Positions 33,697-60,925 of a stretch of DNA of 64,000 nucleotides are shown piece after piece; position 1 is the first letter of the stretch; the number at the start of each line of letters is the position of its first letter. The position numbers were made by a program, and so were the translations under genes. The notes beneath the pieces were generated by a model. That model worked only from the letters and a program-made list of their open reading frames with translations, did no database searches and was not told where the DNA came from. This stretch comes from Pseudomonadota bacterium (lineage in GTDB: Bacteria; Myxococcota_A; Polyangia; Fen-1088), in assembly GCA_023438785.1 (NCBI GenBank), contig JAEXQJ010000259.1, positions 4,816-68,815 of the forward strand, written 5' to 3'.

Positions 33697-35649
33697 TCAG
33701 GGCAGCGGCGCTGGCAGGTGTCCCAGGGCCTGCTTGACCTTGGCCAGCAACTCCTGGCTGGTGTACGGCTTCTGCACGAAACCGGCGAGGCCCTTTCCGG
33801 CGAAGCGATTGACCACGTCTTGCTCGTTGTAGCCCGAGCTGAGCAGCACACGGACGTCGGACTTGACCTGTCTCAACTCGCGGTAGCAGGCGTCGCCGTC
33901 CAGGTGGGGCATGGTCAGATCGAGGATGACCAAGGCGATGCGGTCTCGGTCACGGCGGAAGATCTCCAGAGCCTCGCGGCCATCCCCCGCCACGAGCACC
34001 GTGAAACCAGACTTCGCCAGCATACGGCGGCCCAGGTTGCGCACCGTCTCCTCGTCGTCGGCGAGCAGGATGGGACCGCATGTCCTCCAGGGGGCCGACT
34101 CGTGTGGCGCAATGGGTTTGGCCACCTGGCGCTCGGCGATGGGGAAGAGCAGCTTGAACGTCGTGCCGCGACCAAGCTCGCTGTAGACCTTGATGGCCCC
34201 GCGGTGACCGCGCACGATGCCCAACACGGCGGCCAGGCCCAGACCACGCCCAGTGAATTTGGTCGTGAAGAAGGGATCGAAGATGCGGTCCAGGGTGACC
34301 TTGTCCATGCCCTTGCCCGTATCCGCCACTTCCAGATAGGCGAAGTCGCCCGGCGCAATGCCGTCCGCGCTGAAGCAGCCGCGCAAGTACTCCGAGTCGC
34401 AGTGAGCCAGTCCGGTGGTCACGGAGATGACGCCGCTGCGCTCGCCGATGGCCTCGGAGGCGTTCACGATGAGGTTCATGAGCACCTGGCGGAGCTGCGT
34501 GGCGTCCGCCTCCACCGGCGGCACACCTTGCGCGAAGTGATACTTGAGCACCACCTTCTTGCTGATGCTCACCGCCAGCAGGTGCCCCATCTCCTCGACC
34601 AGTTCCACGAGGTCAACGGGCTCGATGAGGAAACGTCCCTTGCCGCTGTAGGCGAGCAACTGGCGGCACAGCTCGGCGGCCCGGCGCGCGGCGGTCTCGA
34701 TACCCTCCAGACTGGAGCACGCGGGCGAGAGGGGCGACAGATCGGCACGCGCCAGATCGGCGTTGCCCAGGATACCGGTGAGCAGGTTGTTGAAGTCGTG
34801 GGCGATACCGCCGGCCAGCACACCTAGGCTCTCCAGTTTCTGGCTCTGCAGCATCCGCCGTTCGAGCGCCTGTTGATCGGTGATGTCGCGAAGGACGGTG
34901 AGGACCATCCGTTCGTCGCCCAGGGGCAGGGCCAGGGCCGTGATCTGCACGTTGCGACGCTTGCCGTCCTGGCGCCGCAACTCGGCCTCCAGGCCCATCA
35001 CCCGATCCTCGCGCAGAAGGGCGTCGGCCAGCGCCCGGCGCTGCTCGGGGCGGGGCAACAGGTCCAGCTCGGAGCCGCTACGGCCGATCAATTCGTCCGG
35101 GCCATAGCCGGTTGCCTCCGAGAAGGCGAGGTTGCACAGCGCGATGGTGCCGTCCGCCCGAGTGAGCGAGAGGGGCGTGGGCACCAGTTCGAAGATGCGA
35201 CGAAAGCGCTCCTCGCAGGCGCGCAGCTCGCCTTCCCGGGCCGCGCGCGCGCTGACATCGCGTGCTGTGGCGAGGAACTGCCCTGCACCGGTGGGCGAGG
35301 ACCGCCATTCGAGGGTTCGGTAGAGGCCATCCTGGCCGCGGACGCGGTTTGTGAACCCCCTCGCGTCGCCGTGTTGGGGCCAGCGCTGCATGGCCGTCGC
35401 GGTGGCCATGCGGTCGTCCGCGTGAACCAGGTCGAGCAACCGCCTGTTCAACAGCTCGGCCGCGGGCCAACCCAGGACGGTGGTCCAGGCTCGATTGACA
35501 CGAGAAAGGTGACCGTCGGCCGCGGCCAAACAGATGAGGTCAGGCGCCAGGTCGAGCATCTTCTCTCCATCGACGCGGCCTCCGCGGGCCAGCACATCGC
35601 CGCCACCGCTGTTTCCCTCTGGTCTTGTCGCGCTCGTCGTGTCCGCCAT
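33697..35649 (-). CDS. Hybrid sensor histidine kinase/response regulator (2x PAS, HisKA, HATPase, REC)
   Basis: Phospho-acceptor His box HDFNNLLTGILG, G-box DTGKGMD and a C-terminal receiver (ILLADDEETV...DLTMPHLDG). Start set to ATG 35649 (uncertain; ORF extends to 35778). Confidence 0.85.
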   Translation of the reverse strand: MADTTSATRPEGNSGGGDVLARGGRVDGEKMLDLAPDLICLAAADGHLSRVNRAWTTVLGWPAAELLNRRLLDLVHADDRMATATAMQRWPQHGDARGFTNRVRGQDGLYRTLEWRSSPTGAGQFLATARDVSARAAREGELRACEERFRRIFELVPTPLSLTRADGTIALCNLAFSEATGYGPDELIGRSGSELDLLPRPEQRRALADALLREDRVMGLEAELRRQDGKRRNVQITALALPLGDERMVLTVLRDITDQQALERRMLQSQKLESLGVLAGGIAHDFNNLLTGILGNADLARADLSPLSPACSSLEGIETAARRAAELCRQLLAYSGKGRFLIEPVDLVELVEEMGHLLAVSISKKVVLKYHFAQGVPPVEADATQLRQVLMNLIVNASEAIGERSGVISVTTGLAHCDSEYLRGCFSADGIAPGDFAYLEVADTGKGMDKVTLDRIFDPFFTTKFTGRGLGLAAVLGIVRGHRGAIKVYSELGRGTTFKLLFPIAERQVAKPIAPHESAPWRTCGPILLADDEETVRNLGRRMLAKSGFTVLVAGDGREALEIFRRDRDRIALVILDLTMPHLDGDACYRELRQVKSDVRVLLSSGYNEQDVVNRFAGKGLAGFVQKPYTSQELLAKVKQALGHLPAPLP

Positions 35650-35889
35650 GCTGGTGTCCGTCGCAGGCGGCCATTGTAGCCATCCTGCGCCATTTCGCGA
35701 ACGCAATAGCGCAGCGCCGCGAAAGGTTGGCCCATCGCGTGGTGCCCTGTCGGCCGGTGGGCGCCGCGATCGACGCATGACCCGATTCGCCAGTCGTTGC
35801 GCTGCCTTGCCCGACGCCGCGTGGGTACAGTTTTGATGTGGATAAAAAGTATTCTAGCTTACGATGAATACTTGGGACACAATGGGGCC

Positions 35890-47621: not shown

Positions 47622-49127
47622 GTGATGGAAGCTGACGGACGCGTATGCGAACGGCTGGCGGCGCGGGGATCTACGCTGGCGGCCTGGCTGGCCCGGCACG
47701 CCGACGTGGTGCTGCTGTGGCTGGTGGCCTGGGCGTCGGGGATGCTCATGGGCTTCGGCGCGCAGGTCTACTGGGACAGCGCGGGTTATGTGCAGCAGGC
47801 CATCACCGGTCAGGTGGGCGGTCTGGCGTTGGGACGTCCGGTCTTCGTGTGGGTTTCGCACGGCCTCGTGGTGGCCAGCCACGCGCTGGGCGTGTCGCTG
47901 TGGCACGCGGAGAGACTGCTGCAGGTCTTCTGGATGTGCGTCTCTGCCTGCTCGGCGCCCTTGACCCTCCTGTTGGCGCGGGAGTGCGGGGCCAATCAGC
48001 GGGCAGCCCTCCTGGCGGGCCTGGCAGTGGCTGCCTCACCGGCGCTGGCCCACGTGGCCGGCGCCGTGCTGACCGATGGTCCTGCCCTGGCCGCAACTTG
48101 CTGGGGGCTGCTGCTCGCCTTGCGCGCCCTCAATCCGGCGCGCGCTGTGGTCCGTCCGGGCCTGCGGGGGCTGGCCGCCGGCCTGGTGCTGGGCTTGGCG
48201 GTGGGCATGCGCGAGCAGTCCCTCGCTCAGGGCTTGGTCTGTGCCTTGGCCCTGCTGGGCGCACCGGCCGGCCGCCGTGTGCGCTTCGCCTTCGGGTGCC
48301 TGGCAGGCCTGGTGCTCGCGGCGGGCTTGCCGGTGCTCTGGGCTGTGGTGTCCCAGCCGGAGTACGTGGATACGGTGCGGGACTGGATCCAGGCCATGCA
48401 GAGCGAGCGCGACCAGCGCCCCTACACGATATGGGATTTCCGGGTCTTCCTCATCTGGCTTGTGACGCTCGGGCCTCTCACCACCTTGGCCGGGCTTACG
48501 GCTTGGTGGGGCCAACGAGCCCGGCTGTGGCGGATCCGATCGCTGGCCTTCGCGCTCTGTGTTCCCGCGCTGCTGCAGCTCGGAATGCTGGCCTTCTATC
48601 AGGACATCTCGTACAGCCCGCGCTACCTCCTGCCCGCGCTGCCCGGCGCCCTGGCCATTCCGGCCGGACTGGCTCTGGACGACTGGTTGCGCGGCCGGCA
48701 CCTTTACCGGTTGGGCCTGGTCGTTGTCCTGGCACCCGTCCTCCTGGCCGCGCCCCTGGTGGCCGACGAACAGCGCGACCTGGAGCAATCCCTGCGGGGC
48801 CTGCCGAGCCTGCTGCAGAAGGTTCCGCGACGCACTGTTTTGATCACTGGCCAGCCCTGCGAGAGCGTGCGCTTGTGGTCCGTGATCGCCGCACGCGAGC
48901 CTGCCTCCTGGCACGGACGCAGACCCGCGTGGCACATCCTGTGCCCGGGATGGGCGTGGCCTGCCGATCTGGATGCGCATCTCAACGGCAAGCTGGAAGC
49001 GGGCTACGCGCTCATCTTGGACGCACGCCAGGGTAGCTGGCAGGACGGCGACCAGCGTGAGACCATGTATGAGGTGGAAGCCTGGGCCGGTGAACACCCC
49101 CAGGCCCGCGTGCGGATCTGGCGCTGA
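47622..49127 (+). CDS. Polytopic membrane protein, possibly GT-C-like (ArnT/PMT-like) glycosyltransferase
   Basis: 501 aa with about 11 TM segments. Function is inferred from topology only. Confidence 0.5.
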   Translation: MMEADGRVCERLAARGSTLAAWLARHADVVLLWLVAWASGMLMGFGAQVYWDSAGYVQQAITGQVGGLALGRPVFVWVSHGLVVASHALGVSLWHAERLLQVFWMCVSACSAPLTLLLARECGANQRAALLAGLAVAASPALAHVAGAVLTDGPALAATCWGLLLALRALNPARAVVRPGLRGLAAGLVLGLAVGMREQSLAQGLVCALALLGAPAGRRVRFAFGCLAGLVLAAGLPVLWAVVSQPEYVDTVRDWIQAMQSERDQRPYTIWDFRVFLIWLVTLGPLTTLAGLTAWWGQRARLWRIRSLAFALCVPALLQLGMLAFYQDISYSPRYLLPALPGALAIPAGLALDDWLRGRHLYRLGLVVVLAPVLLAAPLVADEQRDLEQSLRGLPSLLQKVPRRTVLITGQPCESVRLWSVIAAREPASWHGRRPAWHILCPGWAWPADLDAHLNGKLEAGYALILDARQGSWQDGDQRETMYEVEAWAGEHPQARVRIWR

Positions 49128-49297: not shown

Positions 49298-51622
49298 ATG
49301 GGTCCCGCCCGTCGCCATTCTCGGAGGTGGGCAAGCGCGTGGGCCCTGCTCGCGGGCTTCTGGGCCATCCGGCGGGCGGCGCGCGCCGACGGCCTCGGTG
49401 ATCTGGAGAGTCTGCTCAGCGAGCAAATCGTCACCTCGGCCTCCAAGCAGGCGGAGGGCGCAAGCTCGGCCCCCGCATTGTCCACCAGCCTCTCCGCCGA
49501 CGATTTGCGTCGCTACGGCGTCAAGACCCTGGCCGAGGCCATCGACTTCCTCACCGTCGGCGTGAAGACCTCCGGCAACCTCAACGGACGCGAGATCGGT
49601 GCTCGGGGTGTGTTGCTGACGGGTGACCGCGGCAGCCACTTCCTGCTGCTGGTGGATGGCCACGCCGTCAACGAGCCCCTGCGCGGCAGCGCCTGGCTCG
49701 GCGTTGGTGCGGGCGTTCCCATGGAGATAATCGACCACATCGAGGTGATTGTGGGCGCCGGCTCTGTGCTCTATGGGTCGAATGCCATGCTGGGCCTCAT
49801 CAATGTGGTCACCAAGCGGGCCAAGGACAACGCGGGCCTGCATCTAGTGGCCGAGTCTTCGGTCTGGACCAGCGCCCGTATGGGTGCGGGCTACACCCAC
49901 AAATTCTCGCTGTTCGGCAGCGAGGCAGAGATCACCGCTCACGGCGAGTACTACCGGCAATTCGGCCCGTACATGACCTTTGGCCCGGTCAATACCGGCG
50001 TGGAACCCGATACGGGCAGCCCAGGCCGCAACAGCCGCGATGCCCTGGGCACCGGCATTTGGGGCGGAACGCAGTCGGAGAACAGCCCCTTCGCCGAGGT
50101 CCCGGCGGGTATGCTTCGCGTCAGCGTGGGCGATGTGGAGCTGAACTACCGAGAGGTGCACTACACGCACTCTGCCCCGACCGGTGTGGGCAACTACGAC
50201 GATCCGGGAACCAAGCAGTGGGAAGTGCGGCGCTCCGCGGACCTCAAGTATCGCCACACGATGTCCGCCCTGCTTGACGTGTCGGCTCGCTTGTATGGCG
50301 ACTACTTCTCCTATCGCAACGACCTGCTCGCCTCCCGCTTCAGCCTGTGTCCCGTGTCCTCCGACGCCGGGGCGCCGACCTGCGACCTCCTCGACAAGGG
50401 CACCGCCATGTGGGCGGGCACGGAGCTTCAGACCTCGTGGGACTGGCTCAAGGACGCTCGCCTGGTCACCATGGCCGGTGTGGACGCGCGCTGGCGTTCC
50501 ATGAACACGAAGCACGATCGCCTCAACGTCACCACCGGCCTGTCGACGCTGCCAAGGACGCAGCAGATTCCAGGCATCGATAGGTCAGACATCACCGTCG
50601 GTGCCTATCTGCAGCAGACATGGACGCCCATGCCGAATCTGCGCTTCAACGGCGGCCTTCGTGTCGACCGCGACTCGCGCTTCGATCCTGTTTTGGTGAA
50701 GCGCTTGTCAGCGAACTGGGAGGCTTGGAAGAACGGTCAGCTGAAGCTGGCCTACGCCGAGGCGTTTCGCGCGCCGAGTTGGGATGAGTCGGATGACTCC
50801 GCCGCCGATCGCATCGCGGCCAATGCGGCATCGAGGCCCAACGTCGACACGCGCGGCGTGAACCTGGGGACGCCGCTGAAGCCCGAGACGGTCAAGTCTA
50901 TCGAGGGCAGCATTCAGCAGAAGCTCGGAGCCCATCGCTTCCTCGTGGGCGGCTTCTACTCGCGCTGGAACAACCTGGTTCACCTGCGCCAGCTCAGCGC
51001 CGCTGAAACAAACACGGCCCGCAGCAACGGCCTGACCGCTCCCCTCGCAAACGGCGTGCTCCTGACGCAATACCAGAACGTCAGCACCATCGACAATTAC
51101 GGGCTCAACGTGGGGATAGATGGCGCGGTGGGATTCGATGCCCTGCAATACGGTCTGAGCGCCACGCTCGCCGAGGCCAGGGTCAAGACGCCGGACGCGC
51201 CAGGTGCGACCACCGTGACGGCAGGAGCCCAGCGCAACGGCAATATTGCCCCCGCCGTCTTCGGCAACGCCCGTATCGCCTACATCCCCGGGGGCATGTG
51301 GCCCACCATCGCCCTGGCCGCCCAATTCATGGGCAAACAATCACCGGACCAGTACCTAGTCCTGGAGGACGGCACGAGCCTGGAGCCTCGCGTGCCTGCC
51401 CAGGTGGAGGGACGTTTGACGCTTTCGGGTGCCGTCCCGGCGGTTAAGCACCTGAGCTATCGCGTGATTGCCAACTACGCCTTGGCCGACCAGGGCCCCT
51501 ATGTGGTGGGCCCGGTCATGGTCGCGAGGAGCTCGGCCCTCTATACGTTCGACCAGACTCCGCCGCGCCTCATCCCCGTCGATCGCTTTCGAGTCACGTG
51601 CGGTTTGCAGGTGGATTTCTAG
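49298..51622 (+). CDS. TonB-dependent receptor (plug plus beta-barrel, C-terminal Phe)
   Basis: Internal ATG at 49298 with GGAGAG upstream. Plug motif IDHIEVIVGAGSVLYGSNAMLGLINVVTK and terminal ...CGLQVDF. Confidence 0.85.
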   Translation: MGPARRHSRRWASAWALLAGFWAIRRAARADGLGDLESLLSEQIVTSASKQAEGASSAPALSTSLSADDLRRYGVKTLAEAIDFLTVGVKTSGNLNGREIGARGVLLTGDRGSHFLLLVDGHAVNEPLRGSAWLGVGAGVPMEIIDHIEVIVGAGSVLYGSNAMLGLINVVTKRAKDNAGLHLVAESSVWTSARMGAGYTHKFSLFGSEAEITAHGEYYRQFGPYMTFGPVNTGVEPDTGSPGRNSRDALGTGIWGGTQSENSPFAEVPAGMLRVSVGDVELNYREVHYTHSAPTGVGNYDDPGTKQWEVRRSADLKYRHTMSALLDVSARLYGDYFSYRNDLLASRFSLCPVSSDAGAPTCDLLDKGTAMWAGTELQTSWDWLKDARLVTMAGVDARWRSMNTKHDRLNVTTGLSTLPRTQQIPGIDRSDITVGAYLQQTWTPMPNLRFNGGLRVDRDSRFDPVLVKRLSANWEAWKNGQLKLAYAEAFRAPSWDESDDSAADRIAANAASRPNVDTRGVNLGTPLKPETVKSIEGSIQQKLGAHRFLVGGFYSRWNNLVHLRQLSAAETNTARSNGLTAPLANGVLLTQYQNVSTIDNYGLNVGIDGAVGFDALQYGLSATLAEARVKTPDAPGATTVTAGAQRNGNIAPAVFGNARIAYIPGGMWPTIALAAQFMGKQSPDQYLVLEDGTSLEPRVPAQVEGRLTLSGAVPAVKHLSYRVIANYALADQGPYVVGPVMVARSSALYTFDQTPPRLIPVDRFRVTCGLQVDF

Positions 51623-51644
51623 TTCACGAGGGGCCAGGGGACCT

Positions 51645-52304
51645 ATGAACCAGAAATCGACACCAGCGACGGCGCAACAAGGCGTGCCTGCCTCTTCCGG
51701 CAGCGCCGGCCGGCTGGTGTGGCCGCACAGGGCCAACCCATGGCTCGTCTGTGCCATGGTCTGGCTCTGCCTGTGTCTGTGCGGAGTGCGACAGGTGCGC
51801 GCCGACGACGTTGCCGTGCCCATTCCCATGCAGGTCCAGCTCCTCGCCAGCGTGGCCGACTACGACAAGGCGTTCGCCGAGCGTGCCAAGGGCAGCGTGA
51901 AGATTGTCCTGCTGACCTCCAAGGACCCCGACAGTGCCCGTGCGGCGGCGCAGGTCCGGGTCGCCCTACGGGGTGTCTCACAGATCGCCGGCTTGCCGCA
52001 CGAAGAGTCGATCGTGCAATTCGAGTCCGCGGCCGCGCTGAGGGATCTGTGCCGCAGCAAGGGCGTCGGTGTCGTCTTCGTCATGCCTGGCTTCCAGAAA
52101 GAGGTCGCCGACATCAAGCGCAGCTTGGATGGCGTGAGTGTGCTCTCGGTCGCCACCGTCGGGGCCTACGTCCAAGAGGGCGTGGTGCTGGGATTCGACG
52201 TCATCTCCGGCAAGCCCAAGTTGCTCGTGAACCTGCCGCAGGCCCGAGCCCAGAAGGTCGCCTTCAAGGCCGAGTTGCTGAAGATGGTGAAGGTCATCGA
52301 ATAG
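51645..52304 (+). CDS. YfiR-like (DUF4154) periplasmic protein
   Basis: Internal ATG at 51645 with GAGGGG upstream. Signal peptide present. The C-terminus KLLVNLPQARAQKVAFKAELLKMVKVIE resembles the YfiR-family C-terminal pattern. Assignment from memory. Confidence 0.45.
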   Translation: MNQKSTPATAQQGVPASSGSAGRLVWPHRANPWLVCAMVWLCLCLCGVRQVRADDVAVPIPMQVQLLASVADYDKAFAERAKGSVKIVLLTSKDPDSARAAAQVRVALRGVSQIAGLPHEESIVQFESAAALRDLCRSKGVGVVFVMPGFQKEVADIKRSLDGVSVLSVATVGAYVQEGVVLGFDVISGKPKLLVNLPQARAQKVAFKAELLKMVKVIE

Positions 52305-52357
52305 ACGGACGCGGAACGAGGCGTTCGCGCGTGCGGTGACTGCTCAGAAGGATTGCC

Positions 52358-52882
52358 ATGAATACCGATGACGAGCTCGCACAGGTCAATACGGAGCTAA
52401 GGGGTGTCTGCCAGGACATGTTCCCGGGCATCCAATGTGAACTCGGAATCGACGTGCCCGAGAAACCGGCGTCGCAGATGACCATTCTGGCCACGCTCGG
52501 CCTCAGCTCGGAAAATGTGCGCGGCGCCCTCGTGGTGTTCGGGCCGCCCGAGTTCTTTCGGGCCACGTACCCACTTGCCGGACCACGGGAGAGCGACGTC
52601 CGGGATTGGGCCGGCGAAGTCGCCAACCAGACCTTGGGGCGTCTCAACAACCGATTCGCGCGGCGGGGCTGCATCTTCTCCCACGGCATACCCGCGATTG
52701 TCTCCGGCGATGCCCTCCAACTCGCGCTCGGCGAAAATCGCCGCCGCGCCACCCTGCGTGGCCGGCTGGGGGCCCACGAGGTCGTGATGGTGTTGGACGT
52801 CCAACGCACCGACGGCACGGCTCTCTTCCATCCGGGTGAAAGGTCCGAGACGGTGAGCGAAGGAGAAGGGATTCTCTTCTAG
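52358..52882 (+). CDS. cheX: CheX/CheC-type CheY-P phosphatase
   Basis: DWAGEVANQTLGRLNNRFARRGCIFSHGIP matches D/S-x3-E-x2-N-x22-P exactly (D..E..N then P at +22). 174 aa with GAAGGA RBS. Confidence 0.75.
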   Translation: MNTDDELAQVNTELRGVCQDMFPGIQCELGIDVPEKPASQMTILATLGLSSENVRGALVVFGPPEFFRATYPLAGPRESDVRDWAGEVANQTLGRLNNRFARRGCIFSHGIPAIVSGDALQLALGENRRRATLRGRLGAHEVVMVLDVQRTDGTALFHPGERSETVSEGEGILF

Positions 52883-52910
52883 TCCTCCGAACCCGCAGAG
52901 GAAGCACCAG

Positions 52911-53282
52911 ATGGCACACAAGATCCTGCTCGTGGACGACTCAAGGACGGTTCGCCAACAGGTCGCCGCGGCCCTGACCGAGGCGGGATTCGCTGTCGTT
53001 GAGGCGGGAGATGGCGGCGAGGCCCTGGATCAGCTCGCCAAGAACGGCGATGTCCGGATGGTTGTCTGTGACGTCACGATGCCACGTATGTCCGGTCTGG
53101 AATTCCTGGCGGCCATGAAGGACCAGGGACGCATGGGGAGTCCGCCGGTCATCATGCTGACCACCGAGGGCAAGAGCGAAGTCATCGAGAAGGCCAAGGC
53201 ATTGGGTGTGCGTGGCTGGGTGGTGAAGCCCGTCCAGGCCGCGCAGCTCGTCGCCGCCGCCAAGAAGCTGACCGACGGCTGA
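52911..53282 (+). CDS. Single-domain CheY-like response regulator
   Basis: ILLVDDS...DVTMPRMSG...VVKP. AGAGGAAG RBS. Confidence 0.9.
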   Translation: MAHKILLVDDSRTVRQQVAAALTEAGFAVVEAGDGGEALDQLAKNGDVRMVVCDVTMPRMSGLEFLAAMKDQGRMGSPPVIMLTTEGKSEVIEKAKALGVRGWVVKPVQAAQLVAAAKKLTDG

Positions 53283-53294
53283 GGCGCGTGCCGC

Positions 53295-54317
53295 TCAGAA
53301 CGCCTCGGGAAGGTAGCTCGCGGCGTTGGTCGCGTCGAAGGTGCGGTCGTTGTTTTTCATCACCGTGGGGATCTGCTCACCCTGGGCGTACTTGAGGATG
53401 GTGTCGAAGACCACGGGGCCGAACTTGGGGTTGCACTCAGTCAGCTCGGAGATCTTGCCCTCGATGACGTACTGGGTGGCCTTCAGCGTCCCGTCTATCG
53501 ACAGCAGCATGATGTCTCTGCCGGGCTCCTTCCCCAGTTGCTGCAGGGCCGTGATGATGCCGAAAGACATACCGTCGTTGTGCGAAAAGATGACGTCGGC
53601 CGTCGGGTATTGGGGGAGGACCTCGAGGAGCAGGTCGTGCGCCTTCTGCTCGTCGAAGTCGGCGTCCTGCGAGAAGAGCAGCTTCATGCCAGGCTGGCCC
53701 GCGATTCTGCCGTCGAAGCCTTGCTTTCGTCCCACGGCGGCCGAGGAACCGACCGTGCCCTCGAATTCGATGATGTTGGCGTGGCCGCCGGTCTTTTGGA
53801 TGAGCCAGTCAGCCGTCAGCTCGCCCTCCTTGACGAAGTCCGAGCCGATGTAAGTCACGTAGTCGAGCCCGGGCACGGCGATGTTGGTGTCGACGGCGCG
53901 GTCCTCGATGAACACCGGGATGCAGGCCTTGCGCGCGGCCACGACGGTCGGAGCGAGATTGGCCTCGTCGTGGGGGGCTAGCAGGATGACGTCGACTTTG
54001 GCGTCGATGAGGGCCTGCATGCGGTCCACCTGTTCGGCGGCGTCGGCGGTGGTTCCTGGGGTGTAGACCAACTCCCAACCGCGCCTGGCGGCCTCGTCGA
54101 CGATGCTCTTCGTGTTGGCGTCACGCCAGGGGCCGTTGGCCTCGTAGAGCTGTGCGAATCCGACCCGGTACGTGTCTTTGAGGGCCAGGGGCGGCAGGCT
54201 GGTGCAGGTCTGGCCTTGGGCCGCGGAGTCGCTCGCGTCATTGCTGCTGCTGCAGGCCGAAAGGGTGGTGGCCACCGCGATTCCACCGATGGTCAGCCAT
54301 CTTTGCAGTTGCGTCAT
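53295..54317 (-). CDS. Periplasmic-binding-protein type I (sugar-binding/LacI-like fold) lipoprotein, orphan (no ABC permease or ATPase nearby)
   Basis: ORF trimmed to ATG at 54317 (MTQLQRWLTIGGIAVATTLSACSS lipobox). It is divergent from the CheA-like kinase gene. Confidence 0.8.
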   Translation of the reverse strand: MTQLQRWLTIGGIAVATTLSACSSSNDASDSAAQGQTCTSLPPLALKDTYRVGFAQLYEANGPWRDANTKSIVDEAARRGWELVYTPGTTADAAEQVDRMQALIDAKVDVILLAPHDEANLAPTVVAARKACIPVFIEDRAVDTNIAVPGLDYVTYIGSDFVKEGELTADWLIQKTGGHANIIEFEGTVGSSAAVGRKQGFDGRIAGQPGMKLLFSQDADFDEQKAHDLLLEVLPQYPTADVIFSHNDGMSFGIITALQQLGKEPGRDIMLLSIDGTLKATQYVIEGKISELTECNPKFGPVVFDTILKYAQGEQIPTVMKNNDRTFDATNAASYLPEAF

Positions 54318-54419
54318 GTTCGTGGGCCTTCGCTGCAGTTGCACCCTTCTGAGCGCCGACGTTCGGCGCGGGATGTCGCCTGCGCCGGGGCGAACTGACG
54401 TGAACCACTGCGCAGTCTT

Positions 54420-54436
54420 GCCTCCCGGGGGGAGGC
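54420..54436. promoter_or_regulatory. Palindrome GCCTCCC-GGGG-GGAGGC in the SBP/kinase divergent intergenic region
   Basis: Seen directly in the sequence. A second palindrome CGCCGA-CGT-TCGGCG lies about 60 nt upstream. Confidence 0.25.
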
Positions 54437-54534
54437 TTCGTCACCTCGGGCCCACAGCTTTAGCGCACGTGTGAACGAGTGAGGTCGGCTTCAGATTCAG
54501 GCGGGACAGCCGAACTGGGGACGAGGGCAAAGCC

Positions 54535-57500
54535 GTGCCGAAGCAAGAGAGAAGACGACGGTTCCTCTCGGTGGGGACCAAGCTGGCCGTCGCCACGGTT
54601 GCCGTGATGGCCACGGCGTCGTTCTTGCTCTTCAGGGAATTGACCGAGCGCGAGCGCAGGCGACTCGTCGATGCGAAGGCGGTTGCCGGCTCGATGGTGA
54701 CCGAGCTTTTCGCCGCGTCCTGTGCCGCCCCTTTGGTGTTCGCGGACGACGATGCGGTGGCGGTCGAATTGGAGAAGCTGCGCAGCAATGGGGCCATCGT
54801 CTATGCCGCCGTCTACTCGAGCAAGGAAGACAAGACGGTCAGGGAGCTCAATCCCGAGAAGAGACCTTCGTACGACTTCAAGCATGGCAAGACGGCGAGT
54901 CGCCTGCTCGAGTACGCGGACAGGATCGAGCTGGTGAAGGACATCCGAGACACCCGCGGGAAGGTGGTGGGATTCGCGGCGTTGAACTTCTCGCTGGCCG
55001 ACGAGAATGCCGCCTTCCGGGTCAGCCGCCGTCGGTTGCTGTGGTTCGCGTTCCTCATCGCCGGGGGCACGGCGGGGCTGCTCATCATGCTGACGCGCAG
55101 GGTGATCGTGGCTCCGCTGGCGCGGGTCACCGAGGCCGCTCGCCGCCTTGAGCAAGGCGACTTGCACGCGCGTGCTGACGTGAAATCAAGCGACGAGGTG
55201 GGGAACCTGGCGCTCGTCTTCAACAGCATGGGCGACGCCATCGTGGATCGTGAACAGAAGCTCGTTCAGGCGCGAAAGAACCTGCAGGACCTCTTCGACA
55301 ACATGCTGCAGGCCATCTTCACGGTTGGCCCAGATGGCCGCATCGATGCGGAGGTGTCTGCTTACGCCAAGCAGATCTTCGGCGACGTGCCGATCGCCGG
55401 CCAATCCGTGGTCGAGTTCTTGCGCCTCGAATCCATGGCCGAAAAGGAGGTGGTCAGCCGCATGAAGTTCTGGCTGCAGCACATCTTCGGCGCCGACGAT
55501 TTTCAGTGGGAGCTCTCCGAGCCGGAGCGAATCCGCGGGCTGAACTACACGCGCACGAACGCGGATGGCGTGGCCGACGAGCGCGTGCTGGAGCTGGACT
55601 ACGCGCCCCTCTACAAGGACGGGGAAATAGTGAAGATCATGTTCTTGGTGAAGGACGTGACCGAGGTGCATCGCCTGCAGGCCGAGATCGCCCGTCGCGA
55701 GGAGCAGAACAAGGAGAATCTGGCTCGCATTCGGCAGATCGCGGCCATGGAGCCCGATCTGTTCAACACGTTCATCGCGGAGGCCAAGATCGTGCTCGAC
55801 GGGTGCGAGGAGGCGCTCGCCGATTTGGAGGAGCCCAGCCGACGGCAGGCTGCCGTGAACTCGTTGTTCCGCGGCATGCACACGCTCAAGGGAAATGCGC
55901 GCATGTTCAAGCTCACGGCGGTGCAGGATATCGCGCACGCCACGGAGGACTACTTCCAGCGGGTGCGAGACGGTGAGGTGGGGCTCGGCCCCGAAATCGG
56001 GCTGGCCATGCACGAGCGCATCGCGGACGTGCGAAAGTTGCTGGGCGAGTTCGAGAAGCTTGGACGGCAGGTCCTGGGCGGGGAGCAGGAGAGCCCGGGC
56101 GAAGCCGCCTTGTCCTTCCTGCGCGCCCAGGAGCGGCCCTTCGACGATGGGCAGAGCGATCTGGCTTCGCTGGGCGACCCGGACGGCGACAAGCCGGCGC
56201 GCGCGCGCCTGGTGGCAAGGGCGACCCAACTGCGGGCCGAGGCGCAGGGCCACGGCTTCGTCAACGTGACCGCGGCCTTCGACTCGGTCCTCCAGGTCCT
56301 GGGTCGCGCCGAGACCACGGCGCTGGACCTGGTGCCCTGCCTGCACGAGGTGAACCAGGCTCTGCAGCTCACCCGTTCACTGTCTGCAGAAGTGGCGACG
56401 GCCGAGCTTTGGCCGTACTTCCGCGACGAGGCCCGGGCGACCTTGCGTGCCCTGGCCGCCAAGCTCAGCGCAGGGGGAGACCGAGCCCGCGAGGCCCTCG
56501 ATGTGTTCTTGCTGGCCGCAGGGGCGCGGTCCTTTGGCCTGGCCACCCTGGCCAACGTGGCGTCGGATTACCATCGGGCCATGACGGAGGACGGTGTGGA
56601 TGGGCGCACCGTCCTGAACGCCCTCGAGTCGTGGGTGGTCGATGGGCACAACCTGGTGGAGATGAGGTCGAAGCCCGAAGCGGACGTGGACGTGCTGGGC
56701 CGCTTCCATGGCGAGGCGGAAGACCTGGTGGAGCGGCTCAACGGGGCGAGCGCCAGTCAGGTCCCGCTGCTGCTCCTGGCGGCCATCGCCTGCGCTCGTC
56801 GGTACCGCTTCCGGGTGGCCCAAGCCGTCCTCGAATCCCTGGCCCAAACTGGGCCCAAGGACGGTGGCGTGGTGGCCGAGGCTTTGCGTCGCGAAGTGCT
56901 TGCCTACGAGGCCATTCGGCGCGAGATGCGCGACAACGAGGCGGCGGAGCACCTGCTGCTCGTGCCGCCTGGCGAGGACGACGAAAGGGAGCTGGCGAAT
57001 TGGTGGGAGGCGGCCGGGCAGGCTGGCCTCAATACGCTGCTGGCTCGCGCGCGCTCGCTGGCCGAGCCGGCTCGTCGGCATCTGCTCGACGACGTTCGTC
57101 ACTTCCGCGTGTTGATGCCGGCCATGCGCGGCGCAAAGACCGGGCAGCCGATCCAGCGGGTGCTCGAAGGCCGTATCGCCGCCCTCCGCGACGCTCTGAG
57201 AGGACTGCGCCAAGCCGTGGCGCACGTGCGGGAGGATCGGCAGGCCATCTTGCCGCCGCTCAACGATCTGGAGAAGGCGGTGGTTCATCTCACCACATCA
57301 TCCCTCGGTGACGTGCTGGCCCCGGTGGCCTCCACGGCGGCCGATCTGGCGCGCGAGCGCGGCAAGCCCCTCGAAGAGGTCAGTCTGGAGAACCTGGACT
57401 TCTTCTTGGAGGCCAGGGCGATGCAGAAGGTTCGGGGCGCGGTCATGCATGCCGTGCGGAACGCGGTCGATCACGGCCTGGAAACCGCCGATGCGCGTGT

Positions 57501-57921
57501 GAGCTCGGGCAAGGCCCCGCGTGGCCGCATCTCCATCAGCGCGCGGGAGCGCGACGGGTGGATCGACTTGACGGTCGAGGACGACGGCCGCGGTGTGGAC
57601 ACGGCTCGCGTGAAGCAAGTCGCTCTCAAACGCGGTCTCATCACGGCTGAGCAGGCGGCGGCGTTGTCCACTGAGGAAGCCCACGAGCTCCTTTTCCTGC
57701 CCGGATTCTCGACCGCGGCCACCGTGTCTTCCGTGTCCGGCCGGGGCGTGGGCATGGATGCCATCCGGGCCATCGCCCGCGATCTGGGCGGCGACGCCAG
57801 ACTGGCCTCCGCGCCAGGGCGGGGCAGTCGGCTCACCATGCACTTCCCCGTCCGGTTCGCGGCGGAGTCGGTCAGACCCGGCAAGGTCGCGCTGGGCAGC
57901 AGCGCACATTTGCCGAACTGA
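54535..57921 (+). CDS. Membrane-bound CheA-class histidine kinase: TM, periplasmic domain (about 140 aa), TM, HAMP, PAS, Hpt, CheA-type ATP-binding core; no CheW-like P5 domain
   Basis: GTG start with GAGGG upstream. HAMP (EQGDLHARADVKSSDEVGNLALVFNSM), Hpt His (RGMHTLKGNARMF), CheA N-box (VMHAVRNAVDHGLE) and G2 box (SGRGVGMDAI) are present. The protein ends right after the HATPase domain. Confidence 0.85.
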   Translation: MPKQERRRRFLSVGTKLAVATVAVMATASFLLFRELTERERRRLVDAKAVAGSMVTELFAASCAAPLVFADDDAVAVELEKLRSNGAIVYAAVYSSKEDKTVRELNPEKRPSYDFKHGKTASRLLEYADRIELVKDIRDTRGKVVGFAALNFSLADENAAFRVSRRRLLWFAFLIAGGTAGLLIMLTRRVIVAPLARVTEAARRLEQGDLHARADVKSSDEVGNLALVFNSMGDAIVDREQKLVQARKNLQDLFDNMLQAIFTVGPDGRIDAEVSAYAKQIFGDVPIAGQSVVEFLRLESMAEKEVVSRMKFWLQHIFGADDFQWELSEPERIRGLNYTRTNADGVADERVLELDYAPLYKDGEIVKIMFLVKDVTEVHRLQAEIARREEQNKENLARIRQIAAMEPDLFNTFIAEAKIVLDGCEEALADLEEPSRRQAAVNSLFRGMHTLKGNARMFKLTAVQDIAHATEDYFQRVRDGEVGLGPEIGLAMHERIADVRKLLGEFEKLGRQVLGGEQESPGEAALSFLRAQERPFDDGQSDLASLGDPDGDKPARARLVARATQLRAEAQGHGFVNVTAAFDSVLQVLGRAETTALDLVPCLHEVNQALQLTRSLSAEVATAELWPYFRDEARATLRALAAKLSAGGDRAREALDVFLLAAGARSFGLATLANVASDYHRAMTEDGVDGRTVLNALESWVVDGHNLVEMRSKPEADVDVLGRFHGEAEDLVERLNGASASQVPLLLLAAIACARRYRFRVAQAVLESLAQTGPKDGGVVAEALRREVLAYEAIRREMRDNEAAEHLLLVPPGEDDERELANWWEAAGQAGLNTLLARARSLAEPARRHLLDDVRHFRVLMPAMRGAKTGQPIQRVLEGRIAALRDALRGLRQAVAHVREDRQAILPPLNDLEKAVVHLTTSSLGDVLAPVASTAADLARERGKPLEEVSLENLDFFLEARAMQKVRGAVMHAVRNAVDHGLETADARVSSGKAPRGRISISARERDGWIDLTVEDDGRGVDTARVKQVALKRGLITAEQAAALSTEEAHELLFLPGFSTAATVSSVSGRGVGMDAIRAIARDLGGDARLASAPGRGSRLTMHFPVRFAAESVRPGKVALGSSAHLPN

Positions 57922-57968: not shown

Positions 57969-59018
57969 CTACCAGCCGGCGTCGAGGAGCAGCGAACCTG
58001 CGCCGAAGGGATAGCCCCACGTCGCGGCCTCGTTGCCGGCGAAGCGGACGACCAAGCGGCCGAACGATGCTCCTGCGGCGAGCCGCAGCGTAAGTCTCAG
58101 CCAGCGCGTGAAGGCCAGACCCGTATCGAAACGGGCGTATCCGATCCCCATGGTGGTCGAGTCAGGAAATGCGGTCACCAGGGGCGGGGTGGCTTTGCCC
58201 TCGACACCGATATGCAGAATCCCGCCGCCCAGTCCGGCCGTGAGCGAGAGCCGCGATTCCGGCGCGCCCCAGCGTCGCAGCAGAACCAGGGCCGCCAGGG
58301 AGGGTCTCAGGCTCGCCGAGCCCTCGGGCCCGGAGGGCTTCATGCCCCGGATGGGGGCAGCCAGATCCAGGGCCACGCCCATGCGATGTCCCACCATTTG
58401 CAGTGACAGCCACATTTCCAGCGCGGCGCCCGCGCCTCCCGGGCTGGCGAGGAATCCCGCCCCGGTCTGCACACGCGCGCACCACGTACACGGCTCGCCC
58501 CTGGAACCGATCAGTTCGGGCGGCAGCGCAGGTTGCGGCGCGGCGGAGGGCGCCGAGGATGCGGCCGGGTGTGGGTCGACGAGCAGGCTGGTGCGCAGCA
58601 ACTCGACGAGCTGCATGGCCACCAGGTTCTCGTCAGGACCCTCGGGGCTCTCGTCGACGATGAGTTGGCGCAACAGCGAGCGCCCCGAGGTCTCGTCGGC
58701 CATCCAGATCTCCACCCCGCGTCGGGACGGAACCAGCCGAATCGCCGCCGCGGCACGCTGCTCGCGCGCTGCCGTCTCCATCTGCTCAGGGCGTTCGGGC
58801 TCTCGCCAGGCTTGCAGGACGACGATCTTGAGTCCCATGCCCTCAATCTCGGCGCGCAGCCGATCGGCGAAGGGATCAGCCGCGCGGTCGAGGATGAACA
58901 GCACCTGCTTGGCCGGTCGCGCGTCGCCCTCTGCGGCAGCGCTGTCCGCCGGGCGGCCCGCCAGCAGGAACTGCGCTGCCAGGAGTCCGGCAAAGGCGGC
59001 CAGGACGCGACGGGGCAT
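57969..59018 (-). CDS. Secreted two-domain protein, likely small outer-membrane beta-barrel (C-terminal Trp)
   Basis: Signal peptide MPRRVLAAFAGLLAAQFLLAG. The C-terminal 170 aa show an alternating hydrophobic beta pattern ending ...LLLDAGW. Its start overlaps the anti-sigma stop (TGATG). Confidence 0.55.
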   Translation of the reverse strand: MPRRVLAAFAGLLAAQFLLAGRPADSAAAEGDARPAKQVLFILDRAADPFADRLRAEIEGMGLKIVVLQAWREPERPEQMETAAREQRAAAAIRLVPSRRGVEIWMADETSGRSLLRQLIVDESPEGPDENLVAMQLVELLRTSLLVDPHPAASSAPSAAPQPALPPELIGSRGEPCTWCARVQTGAGFLASPGGAGAALEMWLSLQMVGHRMGVALDLAAPIRGMKPSGPEGSASLRPSLAALVLLRRWGAPESRLSLTAGLGGGILHIGVEGKATPPLVTAFPDSTTMGIGYARFDTGLAFTRWLRLTLRLAAGASFGRLVVRFAGNEAATWGYPFGAGSLLLDAGW

Positions 59019-60259
59019 CAGTCTTCAGTGAGGATCGAGCGCGCTTCGCGGGCGTACGGACCTTCCGGGAAACGGCGCAGGTAGCGCTCGGCGTCCGCGC
59101 GCGCACCTCGCCTGTCGCCGGCGTAGCGACGGGATTCCATCAGTCGCCCCACTGCATCTCCCATGAGGGCTCCGCTTGGCTGCTCATCGAGGTAGGTAGA
59201 AAACCAACGTACAGCCTCATCATACCCGCCGCGCCTTTCGAAGGCGATACGGCCCAGCGCGAAGGCGGCATTGGAGGCGTCCGCCGTGTGGGCAAAACGC
59301 GAGCGCAGGACGCGCAAAGCGGTGGTCGCCCTTTGGGTGCGGCCCGAGAGCCGGGCGGCGTCGGAGATCTGGAGCAATTCCCTCGGGCTCGCGGCCTGGC
59401 ACACCCGATCGAACCCCGCGCTTTCGGCGGCGCGCAAGCCCTCATTCAGGCGGCCACTGCCCAGCAGGGCGCGCCAGTTGGCCGCCGACCCGGCTTCACG
59501 GCCGAGGCGCGCCGGCTCTCCCACGCTCGGGGCCTCCCCGGGCTGTGCCGGGGCAACCGGGAGCACGCTGGCTTGAGGCTGGGGGATGGCAGTGGGGGAC
59601 TCGGGACAGGACATCTGCAAGGCCTGACCGGCGGCCAGACTGCGCGGCTCCGGCATGCAGCGGCCAGACACCACGACCGAGCCCTCGCGCATCGATACGG
59701 AGAGCGTCTGGGTAGAGGCATTCCAGCCCGCGCGGAACTTCGTGCCGGTGACGAGGACCTGGAAGGGCCCCAATTCGAACTGCCAGTTGGTCCTGCGGAC
59801 CTTGCGATGCACGATGGCGACGTCCACGGAGCCTGATTCGACCAGAACCCGCGCACCGCTGGCCTGCGCGGCGAGCACGCGCATGCGGCTACCCTCGCGC
59901 AATACGATCGAACTGCCCTCCGAGAAGTTGAGGGCCAGCGGGGCATCGCTCATCGCTTCGATGACGTCGCCGGTGCGCCCCGCCGTGGCCGCCCCGCCCA
60001 CCTGGAAGGTCACCGGCGCGCGCAGGATCAGGGCGAGCGCACCCACGCCCAGGGCCACACCCAAGCCCGGCAGGAGCCAACCGAGCCTCAATGACCTGAG
60101 GAAGCGGGGCCGCTCCATTCGCTTTTCATTGCGGAGCGCGACCTGCTCCAGGAGCCGGCGGCGAGCCGTGCGTATCTGCTCGTTCCCGTCGAGTTCCATC
60201 GACAGCGCGTCGCGGATGGTCCTCCCGACGTCGGTTAACTGTTCTTGAGAAGGCTCCAT
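59018..60259 (-). CDS. Anti-sigma factor (FecR-domain, single TM, C-terminal TPR-like)
   Basis: N-terminal cytoplasmic anti-sigma region, a TM segment (LGWLLPGLGVALGVGALALIL) and a FecR-like beta domain (LNFSEGSSIVLREGSRMRV...VLVESGSVDVAIV). Confidence 0.75.
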   Translation of the reverse strand: MEPSQEQLTDVGRTIRDALSMELDGNEQIRTARRRLLEQVALRNEKRMERPRFLRSLRLGWLLPGLGVALGVGALALILRAPVTFQVGGAATAGRTGDVIEAMSDAPLALNFSEGSSIVLREGSRMRVLAAQASGARVLVESGSVDVAIVHRKVRRTNWQFELGPFQVLVTGTKFRAGWNASTQTLSVSMREGSVVVSGRCMPEPRSLAAGQALQMSCPESPTAIPQPQASVLPVAPAQPGEAPSVGEPARLGREAGSAANWRALLGSGRLNEGLRAAESAGFDRVCQAASPRELLQISDAARLSGRTQRATTALRVLRSRFAHTADASNAAFALGRIAFERRGGYDEAVRWFSTYLDEQPSGALMGDAVGRLMESRRYAGDRRGARADAERYLRRFPEGPYAREARSILTED

Positions 60260-60840
60260 CGCGATCCCTCCTTAAGCCATGTCGCAAGAGCCGGGCGAGC
60301 CTGGGCCCCGGCAATAAACTGCTTTTCTGCTCTAGATAGCCGCCGCTTCAGGGTGGCCAACGAAACGCCACTGGCCTCTGCCGCGTCGGGTAGTGTCATG
60401 CCCTCGATATAGCGGAGGGCAAAAGCCATTCGGTCGTTCACCGGGATCTGGTCCATGAGGCGGTACACCTCGCGGAGCGCGTTGCGCGCATCCAGACACG
60501 GCGGATCCTGCTGCGTGTTCGGTGTAGGTGAGCGCAGGCCGAGCCAGTTGCGACGCGTGCGGCGACGAATGTGAGAGCGCGCTGTGAAAATGGCAATGCT
60601 CGTCAGCCAGCCGCGCAGGCGGTCCGATTCCTTCAGTCCCCTGATGCCGTCGATGGCACGAATGAAGACTTCCTGGAGGAGGTCCGGGACATCCGCGTCC
60701 GCTCCCATCATCGACTGCAGCGTCCGGAGCACATGCGGCGCGTAGCGATCGTAGAACGCCGCCACCGCGCCCGGATGGCCGTCCGGCAGCGCGCGAATCA
60801 TCGCGTGGTCATCCCCAAGAAATGTCAAAGGCGTGACCAT
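60235..60840 (-). CDS. ECF-subfamily sigma-70 factor
   Basis: Region 2 (AFYDRYAPHVLR...LQEVFIRA) and region 4 HTH (LRYIEGMTLPDAAEASGVSLATLKRRLSRA). It overlaps the anti-sigma start by 25 nt. Start ATG 60840 or 60801. Confidence 0.8.
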   Translation of the reverse strand: MVTPLTFLGDDHAMIRALPDGHPGAVAAFYDRYAPHVLRTLQSMMGADADVPDLLQEVFIRAIDGIRGLKESDRLRGWLTSIAIFTARSHIRRRTRRNWLGLRSPTPNTQQDPPCLDARNALREVYRLMDQIPVNDRMAFALRYIEGMTLPDAAEASGVSLATLKRRLSRAEKQFIAGAQARPALATWLKEGSRWSLLKNS

Positions 60841-60925
60841 TGTCTTCGAGAAGGTGTCCTTCTCGTCACGAAATCGGCTCATGACGAGGCGCACCTGAGG
60901 CGCGCGCCGGCCTACCCTGACGCGT

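Follow-up and report, generated by a model that had tools for sequence, protein, structure and literature searches.

In the YfiBNR system, the periplasmic protein YfiR represses a membrane enzyme, and YfiB sequesters YfiR (PMC4655355). Both YfiBNR (TpbB; P. aeruginosa and E. coli) and HmsCDE of Yersinia are encoded by a DUF4154 gene that lies beside the genes for an outer-membrane partner and for a membrane protein with two transmembrane (TM) segments, a Cache-like periplasmic domain and a HAMP domain. A comparable arrangement is present in the DNA analysed here, a 64-kb stretch of contig JAEXQJ010000259.1 with about 68% G+C, which is referred to in the following as the window. Six consecutive genes of the window encode a TonB-dependent receptor (TBDR), a YfiR-like protein, a CheX-family protein, a CheY-like receiver, an orphan sugar-binding lipoprotein (SBP) and a membrane sensor kinase. 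The TBDR, the YfiR-like protein and the kinase are the core of this system, while the SBP, the CheX-CheY pair and two further types of receiver (REC) protein found in relatives, REC-GGDEF and Ser/Thr-kinase-REC, are interchangeable accessories. On balance, we favour the view that the core forms a tripartite sensor which spans the envelope and is coupled to a CheA-type transmitter. The hosts are uncultured Polyangia known only from metagenomes.

The window differs from YfiBNR in its outer-membrane partner, which is a 22-strand TBDR and not an OmpA/Pal-like lipoprotein such as YfiB (no gene for a lipoprotein of that type was found among the gene calls within 10 kb). It also differs in its output, which is a CheA-type kinase (Hpt-P3-P4) and not a GGDEF cyclase, and in its YfiR-like protein, which has one cysteine and is only remotely related. 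The layout of the YfiN-type partner (TM segment, CHASE8-like periplasmic domain, TM segment, HAMP) is that of the window kinase. A second comparison is offered by a triad curated in NCBIfam, in which the same three parts are adjacent as they are in the window: a TBDR of the TOL_0244 family (NF053590), a YfiR-like protein of the TOL_0243 family (NF053591) and a 'sensor histidine kinase, YfiR-like protein-associated' (NF053592). Among the NCBIfam models, these three rank first or nearly first for the corresponding window parts. NF053590 is the best TBDR model for the window TBDR, in which it matches the plug only (83.5 bits, cut-off 645). NF053591 is the only YfiR-type NCBIfam match of the window YfiR-like protein (E 4e-5, 23.6 bits, cut-off 125), and NF053592 covers residues 17-234 of the kinase (E 4e-16, 59.1 bits, cut-off 194). 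With scores so far below the cut-offs, the window proteins have to be regarded as remote relatives and not as members of the NCBIfam triad. The window kinase moreover carries a CheA-class Hpt-P3-P4 transmitter, which may set it apart from the NCBIfam family. TOL_0244 itself has been treated as an alkane-induced transporter and not as a signalling part (PMC6304351), in the only paper on this protein that we found. Literature searches on YfiR-like/TBDR/kinase systems, DUF4154, CHASE8 and P5-less CheA-like kinases returned no description of the arrangement. The claim in a preliminary description of this locus that the combination had not been described thus holds for papers, but not for NCBIfam. 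All parts belong to known families, and a comparable triad is already curated. What is new is the CheA-class, P5-less transmitter on a YfiR-linked sensor, the repeated association of this transmitter with CheY and a CheX subfamily that bears a C-terminal tail, and the swapping of receivers around a fixed input device.

As judged from its sequence and its homologues, the kinase fuses its own periplasmic sensor and HAMP domain to a CheA-class P1-P3-P4 core that is not followed by P5. Besides the HAMP, Hpt and HATPase_c domains (Table 1), Pfam gave weak matches to CHASE8 (19.7 bits) and PAS_4 (19.5 bits), and some homologues of the kinase carry a precomputed CHASE8 match. The proposed likeness of the kinase N-terminus to YfiN is borne out by the NF053592 match and by a match of residues 54-251 to the NCBIfam model DgcN/YfiN (E 6e-7). 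The full-length AlphaFold2 (AF2) model of the kinase (mean pLDDT 79) contains a periplasmic fold at residues 72-153 (pLDDT 86-91), a PAS domain at 259-374, a four-helix Hpt domain at 407-513, a helical region at 521-855, a P3 hairpin at 878-920 (helices 878-897 and 903-920) and P4 at 946-1105. When a profile built from 14 orthologues was compared with the PDB, residues 906-1116 matched CheA P3-P4 with E-values of 1e-44 to 8e-47, and residues 407-505 matched CheA P1 with an E-value of about 1e-10. Foldseek gave TM-scores of 0.66-0.67 to the Thermotoga CheA P3P4 structure (4xiv) and of up to 0.94 to P4 alone. The Pfam domain H-kinase_dim was not detected in the kinase. The phospho-histidine H449, located in the motif FRGMHTLKGNA, is invariant in 23 homologues.

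P4 ends about 20 residues before the kinase terminus at residue 1128, and the tail is disordered. The kinase therefore has no P5. This view is supported by the findings that all 14 orthologues end at the same point, that PF01584 does not match the kinase, and that searches of the window with the P5 segments of two full-length CheAs gave no match. The original proposal that the kinase combines its own sensor with a CheA core lacking P5 has thus held once the ends of the protein were verified. The window shares with CheA and Dif pathways the P1 motif HTLKGNA, the P3 hairpin, the CheA-type P4, a single-domain CheY-like receiver and a phosphatase of the CheC/CheX family. In a survey of 13,673 CheAs, however, a CheW domain was present in 100%, and CheA was said to lack a sensor domain (PMC10782961). 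The window kinase has neither a P5/CheW domain nor a CheW gene beside it and possesses a TM sensor, HAMP and PAS; since it lacks P5 and has its own sensor, it falls outside CheA as defined in that survey. Within the kinase orthologues, the periplasmic and catalytic domains are equally conserved (73% each), which fits a constrained partner-binding sensor. The least conserved part is an all-helical insert between Hpt and P3 (56%, as compared to 72-81% elsewhere), which has no Pfam match and is missing from more distant kinases of 720-760 aa. The possibility that this insert consists of degenerate Hpt repeats or an MCP-like bundle was rejected on the basis of hhalign E-values of 0.05 for Hpt, 0.44 for the MCP-like protein of related loci and 0.28 for self-repeats (MCP, methyl-accepting chemotaxis protein).

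The preliminary description had also stated that the locus is devoid of MCP, CheW, CheB and CheR genes and had suggested that a Che-type output takes the place of GGDEF. Indeed, none of the four genes was found among the Pfam-annotated gene calls within 10 kb on either side, and tblastn searches of the whole 64 kb with CheW, the MCP signalling domain (Tsr) and CheA P5 gave no match. Likewise, the window contains no GGDEF gene and no homologue of the REC-GGDEF or MCP-like proteins of related loci. CheW and P5 were not found at the relatives' loci of the system that we examined either, nor were CheR or CheB found with the relatives' MCP-like gene. However, relatives do carry MCP-like genes (loci L013 and L015) and REC-GGDEF genes. 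Therefore, 'no MCP' and 'not GGDEF' are statements about the window locus and not about the family.

That the genes form one system was supported by the finding that the TBDR, YfiR-like and kinase genes occur together in every related locus examined. Ten distinct loci encode a kinase that is at least 60% identical (hereafter the close loci), and in all nine of those whose contig extends that far, the TBDR and YfiR-like genes lie immediately upstream of the kinase gene. The TBDR orthologues beside the kinase are 69-74% identical in the close loci and 41% in more distant ones. Two of the latter, L011 and L012 from Polyangiaceae, encode a kinase of 723-761 aa without the helical insert, divergently from the YfiR-like and TBDR genes, which overlap by 4 bp. 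Their proteins are 36% (kinase), 46-52% (YfiR-like) and 41% (TBDR) identical to those of the window; the three genes have thus diverged together. The more distant kinase also matches NF053592 (E 1e-16, 61.1 bits) and DgcN/YfiN, and the TBDR plug scores 96.1 bits against NF053590; NF053591 gave no match. It could be argued that the six genes are unrelated neighbours, as the kinase gene forms a separate transcription unit, the SBP gene has the opposite orientation, and the CheX-REC pair and the SBP are each missing in some relatives. This is scarcely credible, because the TBDR, YfiR-like and kinase genes stay together across 36-82% identity and in two gene orders, a synteny that contradicts chance for the core, and because the CheX-REC pair recurs beside P5-less Hpt kinases in five contexts (see below). 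The adjacency of the core genes is therefore not accidental.

The triad has a limited distribution. Marine kinases with 27-37% identity (L021-L034) have no DUF4154 or TBDR gene nearby, and the triad thus does not extend to them. In a pattern-based scan of 185,579 species genomes, the 1128-aa kinase type was found in only three uncultured Myxococcales/'delta proteobacterium' bins. One fragmented locus, L009, has two DUF4154 and TBDR sets around the kinase and represents either a duplicated locus in decay or an assembly with many frameshifts. It also encodes a 734-aa CHASE8-HAMP-Hpt protein amid fragmented TBDR/DUF4154 open reading frames (ORFs), with IS21-type transposase genes nearby.

The YfiR-like protein has an N-terminal hydrophobic signal region and scores above the gathering threshold (GA) of PF13689. 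Homologues carry the NCBI name 'YfiR family protein', and a family hidden Markov model detected the protein in all close loci whose contig is long enough as well as in the more distant ones. Pfam and this family naming together predict a DUF4154 protein. No match was obtained when the protein was searched against plasmids with tblastn. YfiR of YfiBNR has two conserved cysteine pairs, C71-C110 and C145-C152 (PMC4655355), whereas the mature window protein has a single cysteine, C136, which is present in 73% of 120 homologues. As both pairs are missing, the redox behaviour of YfiR should not be assumed for the window protein.

The TBDR consists of a signal peptide, about 25 residues with the TonB-box-like sequence EQIVTSAS, a plug and a barrel. 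No Pfam match to an N-terminal signalling (STN) domain was found, and the space between signal peptide and plug is limited to these 25 residues or so. Just 3' of the kinase gene, at 57969-60900 on the opposite (-) strand, there are genes for a 349-aa protein without a family match, a 413-aa FecR-domain/TPR protein (PF04773, 25.3 bits) and an extracytoplasmic function (ECF) sigma factor. A FecA-FecR-FecI-type circuit involving the FecR-like and ECF genes was considered and ruled out, because the TBDR lacks an STN domain and because L004 does not have these genes next to the system. The three downstream genes are therefore probably unrelated to the system.

The window CheX protein scored 21.4 bits against Pfam CheX (PF13690), below the GA of 27. 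This low score is compensated for by family matches, an invariant motif, the AF2 model and fold matches. An exhaustive profile search yielded 920 representative relatives of the protein, and 78 of the 78 family members that were aligned match Pfam CheX at E <= 0.01 (best 4e-16). Across these 78 members, W84, E87, N90, G94, P112 and G169 are invariant and D83 is nearly so (at least 90%). The active-site motif of CheC/CheX/FliY phosphatases, [DS]-x3-E-x2-N-x22-P, is represented by D83, E87, N90 and P112, the N-to-P spacing being 21 instead of 22. The seven best PDB sequence matches are all CheX/CheC proteins. The AF2 model has a pLDDT of 92, and the 13 PDB chains closest to it in fold are without exception CheX/CheC-like (E 5e-9 to 4e-6, TM-scores 0.57-0.77), including CheX from the Borrelia CheX-CheY3 complex. 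As in Borrelia burgdorferi CheX-CheY3 and Thermotoga CheX, which have the same fold (TM-scores of 0.58-0.73 to 3hzh, 1squ and 1xko), the catalytic E and N reside on a long helix. We therefore consider the 174-aa protein, on the strength of its family and its structural model, as a CheX-fold protein with an intact D-x3-E-x2-N...P motif. It is predicted from these sequence features to be a CheY-P phosphatase. The adjacent receiver carries all five catalytic residues (D9, D10, D54, T84 and K106), and CheY is its best NCBIfam model (81.7 bits, cut-off 189). The calls for CheX, Hpt and DUF4154 made in the preliminary description are upheld, the first through family and fold.

Compared to the canonical CheX of 155 aa, the window CheX has about 20 extra C-terminal residues, which end in a conserved E-G-[DE]-x-x-L-F that the canonical proteins lack, and it is associated with a non-array kinase. 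In the CheX family, a variable, disordered linker leads to a C-terminal E-G-[DE]-x-[ILVM]-L-F; 66 of the 78 members terminate in LF. The MCP-like proteins of related loci end alike (RGDVMLF, RGEVQLF), and CheX_A, a paralogue to which we return below, ends in EGSLLFF. When six-frame ORFs of at least 60 aa from the window and from the loci collected by then were scanned with a regular expression for this motif, only CheX_B (the paralogue present in the window), CheX_A and the MCP-like proteins were recovered. The motif may serve for docking, with the CheY-like receiver or the kinase as partner, and would then be comparable to the C-terminal peptide of CheZ or the NWETF tether of MCPs.

The suggestion that CheX and the receiver belong with the kinase was supported, but they are not part of the core, being present in five of the ten close loci and absent from L011 and L012. 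In the window, L013 and L036, the 'B' pair, CheX_B-REC_B, is flanked by the YfiR-like gene on one side and by the gene for the SBP or the kinase on the other. In L036, the closest relative (77%), the gene immediately downstream of the pair is that of the kinase, in the same orientation. The receivers behind CheX_B in L013, L015 and L036 share 79-85% identity with REC_B of the window, and CheX_B is 56-70% identical to its orthologues, whereas CheX and the receiver of the 'A' pair (CheX_A and REC_A) share only 33% and 45% identity, respectively, with their window counterparts. The 'A' pair belongs to a module headed by REC-GGDEF, which is found directly upstream of the TBDR gene in three of the five loci with upstream DNA (L008, the P0011 contig and L013). 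Four other close contigs break off inside the TBDR gene or shortly before it, and an 'A' module may have been present there as well. In L020, the 870-bp gap between the DUF4154 and SBP genes contains no convincing ORF or CheX/REC remnant. The window has either lost the REC-GGDEF module or never had it.

In L013/L014, REC_B is followed after 3 bp by the gene for a 332-aa soluble protein with a match to the MCP signalling tip (PF00015, E 2e-7). In L015/L016, a free-standing CheX_B-REC_B-MCP-like cassette lies behind the gene for a 465-aa soluble PAS-Hpt-P3-P4 kinase. These observations raise the possibility that the window locus is the remnant of a fuller, chemosensory-like pathway of kinase, MCP-like protein, CheX and CheY, from which the MCP-like gene and the REC-GGDEF module were lost. 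In the complete pathway, the kinase would be under direct control of the MCP-like protein. Both 3-bp neighbours, as well as the mere 12 bp between the stop codons of the receiver and SBP genes in the window, would fit such a history. We nonetheless consider it improbable: the MCP-like gene is present in only one of the ten close loci and is absent also from the closest relative, L036; all window genes of the system are intact ORFs with normal codon bias (G+C at third codon positions, GC3, 0.78-0.87); and CheW and P5, the known couplers of MCPs to kinases, were nowhere found. In addition, the MCP-like protein itself remains below the Pfam threshold (31.4 bits, GA 34.6).

Altogether, CheX_B-REC_B was found beside P5-less Hpt kinases in five contexts, namely the window, L013, L036, L015/L016 and L031. 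In L031 (425-5023), CheX-like and REC genes precede the gene for a 1177-aa soluble kinase in which N-terminal Rieske-type CPH...CPLH motifs are followed by PAS and Hpt domains and, after an extended helical stretch, by P3-P4. Other sensors found in front of the PAS-Hpt-(insert)-P3-P4 core are dCache (P0016), CHASE4 (P0042), CHASE8 (P0017 and P0060) and a LacI-type periplasmic-binding-protein (PBP) domain (P0015), and one of these kinases, P0060, is encoded beside a canonical cheB-cheA-cheW-cheY cluster. In the window kinase, the CheA engine is wired directly to a transmembrane sensor, and the modular class to which it belongs bears on the kinship between chemosensory kinases and ordinary two-component kinases.

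ChvE-VirA, LuxP-LuxQ and TorT-TorS are sensor kinase systems that use a separate periplasmic binding protein. The window resembles these systems, and the Bacteroides hybrid kinase BT1754, in that the gene for an orphan type-I PBP adjoins that for a membrane kinase. The SBP has the lipoprotein signal L-S-A-C (an alternative GTG start is located at 54344). Among solved structures, those of YtfQ galactofuranose-binding proteins (E 3e-49) and RbsB (E 1e-25) are closest to it, and it also matches 2x7x, the PBP-fold sensor domain of BT1754 (E 3e-21). In line with the original assignment as a PBP-I lipoprotein without transporter partners, no ABC-transporter genes were found beside it among the gene calls within 10 kb. 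Eight of the ten close loci have the SBP gene next to that for the kinase. The SBP gene is co-directional with the TBDR, YfiR-like and kinase genes in L019 (3246-4145) and inverted in all other loci.

These properties of the SBP are the basis for the main rival view, according to which the system senses nutrients: the TBDR would do no more than import a carbohydrate, the SBP would bind it and dock on the kinase in the manner of ChvE-VirA or LuxP-LuxQ, and the YfiR-like protein would be a secondary modulator or chaperone-like partner. The SBP as a YtfQ/RbsB-type monosaccharide binder without nearby transporter genes, its place next to the kinase gene, its match to the sensor of a hybrid kinase and the plain transporter layout of the TBDR all agree with this view. 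So, at first sight, does P0015 (L005, 7370-11800), a 1476-aa soluble kinase in which a LacI-type sugar-binding domain and a GAF-like region replace the membrane sensor in front of the same PAS-Hpt-insert-P3-P4 core (42% identity). However, the PBP domain of P0015 is of the cytoplasmic LacI type, without signal peptide or TM segment, and compares with the window SBP at an E-value of only 1.7. Therefore, we do not consider this fusion as proof of a link between the SBP and the kinase. Furthermore, the SBP is missing in L036, the P0011 contig and both distant loci, whereas the TBDR and the YfiR-like protein are always there. This dispensability weakens the nutrient-sensing view, which we regard as unlikely, and, together with the CheA class of the partner kinase, it distinguishes the window family from systems of the ChvE-VirA type.

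Our preferred reading remains that of a tripartite sensor. In the model that we propose, every functional step beyond the identity of the domains is one that we infer, and YfiR-style repression of the kinase is borrowed by analogy. As in YfiBNR, the YfiR-like protein would bind the periplasmic domain of the kinase and set its activity. The TBDR would stand in for YfiB, either by titrating the YfiR-like protein when it is loaded or energised by TonB, or by delivering a ligand. Where present, the lipoprotein SBP would add a monosaccharide input. The signal would then pass via HAMP and PAS to a dimeric P3-P4 core, which would phosphorylate H449 without CheW or a receptor array. From H449 the phosphoryl group would be transferred to D54 of the 123-aa receiver, and CheX would remove it. 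In the Dif pathway of Myxococcus xanthus, EpsW is responsible for the output, and DifD and DifG act as a drain for the phosphate of DifE (PMC4671073). By analogy with DifD/DifG, we consider it more likely that the CheX-CheY pair is a branch that can be tuned, or a sink for phosphate, than that it provides the sole output. The main output may then run through other receivers, namely REC-GGDEF in close relatives and Ser/Thr-kinase-REC in distant ones; in the window genome, any such receiver would be encoded elsewhere.

Several observations weigh against the tripartite sensor. Each protein-protein contact in it is deduced from gene order and homology. The TBDR has the layout of an ordinary transporter, without a signalling domain, and may simply import its substrate. 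The YfiR-like protein lacks the two conserved cysteine pairs of YfiR, stays far below the NCBIfam YfiR-like cut-off, and gave no YfiR match in a PDB sequence search. The 123-aa receiver is the only candidate effector receiver in the window, and L004, for which the full 10-kb flanks are available, has neither CheX-REC pair. Lastly, the model leaves the role of the relatives' MCP-like protein unexplained. A more far-reaching version of the model would describe a new route from the outer membrane to the cytoplasm, in which the TBDR replaces YfiB and captures a YfiR-like inhibitor, its loading or TonB switches on the kinase, the CheA P1-P3-P4 core runs in the manner of an ordinary sensor kinase without CheW, P5 or an array, and the LF peptide of CheX and the MCP-like protein is a docking tag for the receiver or the kinase. 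We put this version forward as a tentative proposal, about which we are more doubtful than hopeful.

The receivers of related loci vary. In Wsp, the CheA-like kinase WspE acts on the REC-GGDEF protein WspR, in a pathway that uses an MCP (WspA), CheW-like proteins, CheR, CheB and a kinase with P5. L008, L013 and the P0011 contig resemble Wsp in that they encode REC-GGDEF together with a CheA-class kinase, whereas the window has no MCP, CheW, CheR, CheB, P5 or GGDEF gene. In the distant loci L011 (12528-16329) and L012 (12347-16042), which are without CheX, CheY and SBP, the YfiR-like and TBDR genes are followed by the gene for a 685-729-aa protein with a faint match to DUF4215 and then by a gene for a Ser/Thr protein kinase fused to a receiver. 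This Ser/Thr-kinase-REC protein is a candidate for an alternative output in the distant Polyangiaceae loci. The variable receivers (CheY with CheX, REC-GGDEF and Ser/Thr-kinase-REC) provide a natural example of one input device with different outputs, and the constant pairing of the TBDR with the YfiR-like protein suggests a second way, besides FecA/FecR, by which an outer-membrane transporter may inform the cytoplasm.

The coordinates of the relevant features are listed in Table 1. A 104-kb metagenome scaffold (ENA ERZ28600165, sample SAMN17278943) encodes a protein identical to the kinase, and independent gene calls on this scaffold match the reading of the window, in which all six genes are present as first described. 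Their domain assignments have been sustained by Pfam and, for CheX, by the family profile and the fold. The TBDR, YfiR-like, CheX and receiver genes, which are spaced by 23, 53 and 28 bp, probably form one operon. The SBP gene has the opposite orientation, so that it converges on the receiver gene and diverges from that of the kinase, and the intergenic region between SBP and kinase presumably holds both promoters; a scan for promoter and terminator consensus sequences (sigma-70 consensus) gave nothing above shuffled controls.

Table 1. Positions of the genes of the system and of selected motifs and domains in the window and in related loci.
Feature	Locus	Position	Strand	Length	Evidence or remark
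TBDR	window	49298-51622	+	774 aa	Pfam Plug 47.8 bits, TonB_dep_Rec_b-barrel 80.8 bits
DUF4154/YfiR-like periplasmic protein	window	51645-52304	+	219 aa	PF13689 38.3 bits (GA 24.9)
CheX-family phosphatase (predicted), 'B' paralogue (CheX_B)	window	52358-52882	+	174 aa	motif, family profile, AF2 fold
CheX motif codon D83	window	52604-52606	+		
CheX motif codon E87	window	52616-52618	+		
CheX motif codon N90	window	52625-52627	+		
CheX motif codon P112	window	52691-52693	+		
C-terminal LF motif	window	52862-52882	+		last 7 CheX codons, E-G-E-G-I-L-F
CheY-like single-domain receiver, 'B' paralogue (REC_B)	window	52911-53282	+	123 aa	Response_reg 90.7 bits
Phospho-acceptor D54 codon of REC_B	window	53070-53072	+		
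Orphan type-I sugar-binding lipoprotein (SBP)	window	53295-54317	-	340 aa	Peripla_BP_4 137 bits
SBP-kinase divergent intergenic region	window	54318-54534		217 bp	gene coordinates
Membrane sensor kinase	window	54535-57921	+	1128 aa	HAMP 50.5 bits, Hpt 47.3 bits, HATPase_c 61.6 bits
Kinase TM1	window	residues 13-35			
Kinase periplasmic domain	window	residues 36-160			alpha/beta, Cache/PAS-like
Kinase TM2	window	residues about 164-187			
Kinase HAMP	window	residues 187-237			
Kinase PAS	window	residues 255-375			
Kinase Hpt/P1	window	residues 405-513			
Kinase phospho-histidine H449 codon	window	55879-55881			
Kinase helical insert (residues 520-860)	window	56092-57114	+		all-helical, about 15 helices, pLDDT 85-95
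Kinase P3 hairpin	window	residues 876-942			
Kinase P4	window	residues 943-1106			CheA-type; disordered tail to 1128
REC-(middle domain)-GGDEF gene	L008	3142-4584			intact GGEEF and RxxD motifs; heads REC-GGDEF-CheX_A-REC_A module
REC-(middle domain)-GGDEF gene	L013	3550-4992			intact GGEEF and RxxD motifs; heads REC-GGDEF-CheX_A-REC_A module
MCP-like gene	L013	10180-11178		332 aa	follows CheX_B-REC_B, no CheW
MCP-like gene	L015	10950-11948		332 aa	follows CheX_B-REC_B, no CheW
C-terminal LF motifs	L013	5553-5573, 9745-9765, 11155-11175			
C-terminal LF motifs	L015	10514-10534, 11925-11945			

Upstream, the TBDR gene is abutted by a gene (47622-49127, + strand) for a 501-aa polytopic membrane protein with a weak PMT/PMT_2 match (glycosyltransferase family 39-like), which is not conserved in related loci. 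Elsewhere in the window, at 33697-35778 on the - strand, a second, unrelated histidine kinase ORF of 693 aa with a C-terminal receiver-like segment was seen, solely as a side match in the tblastn searches.

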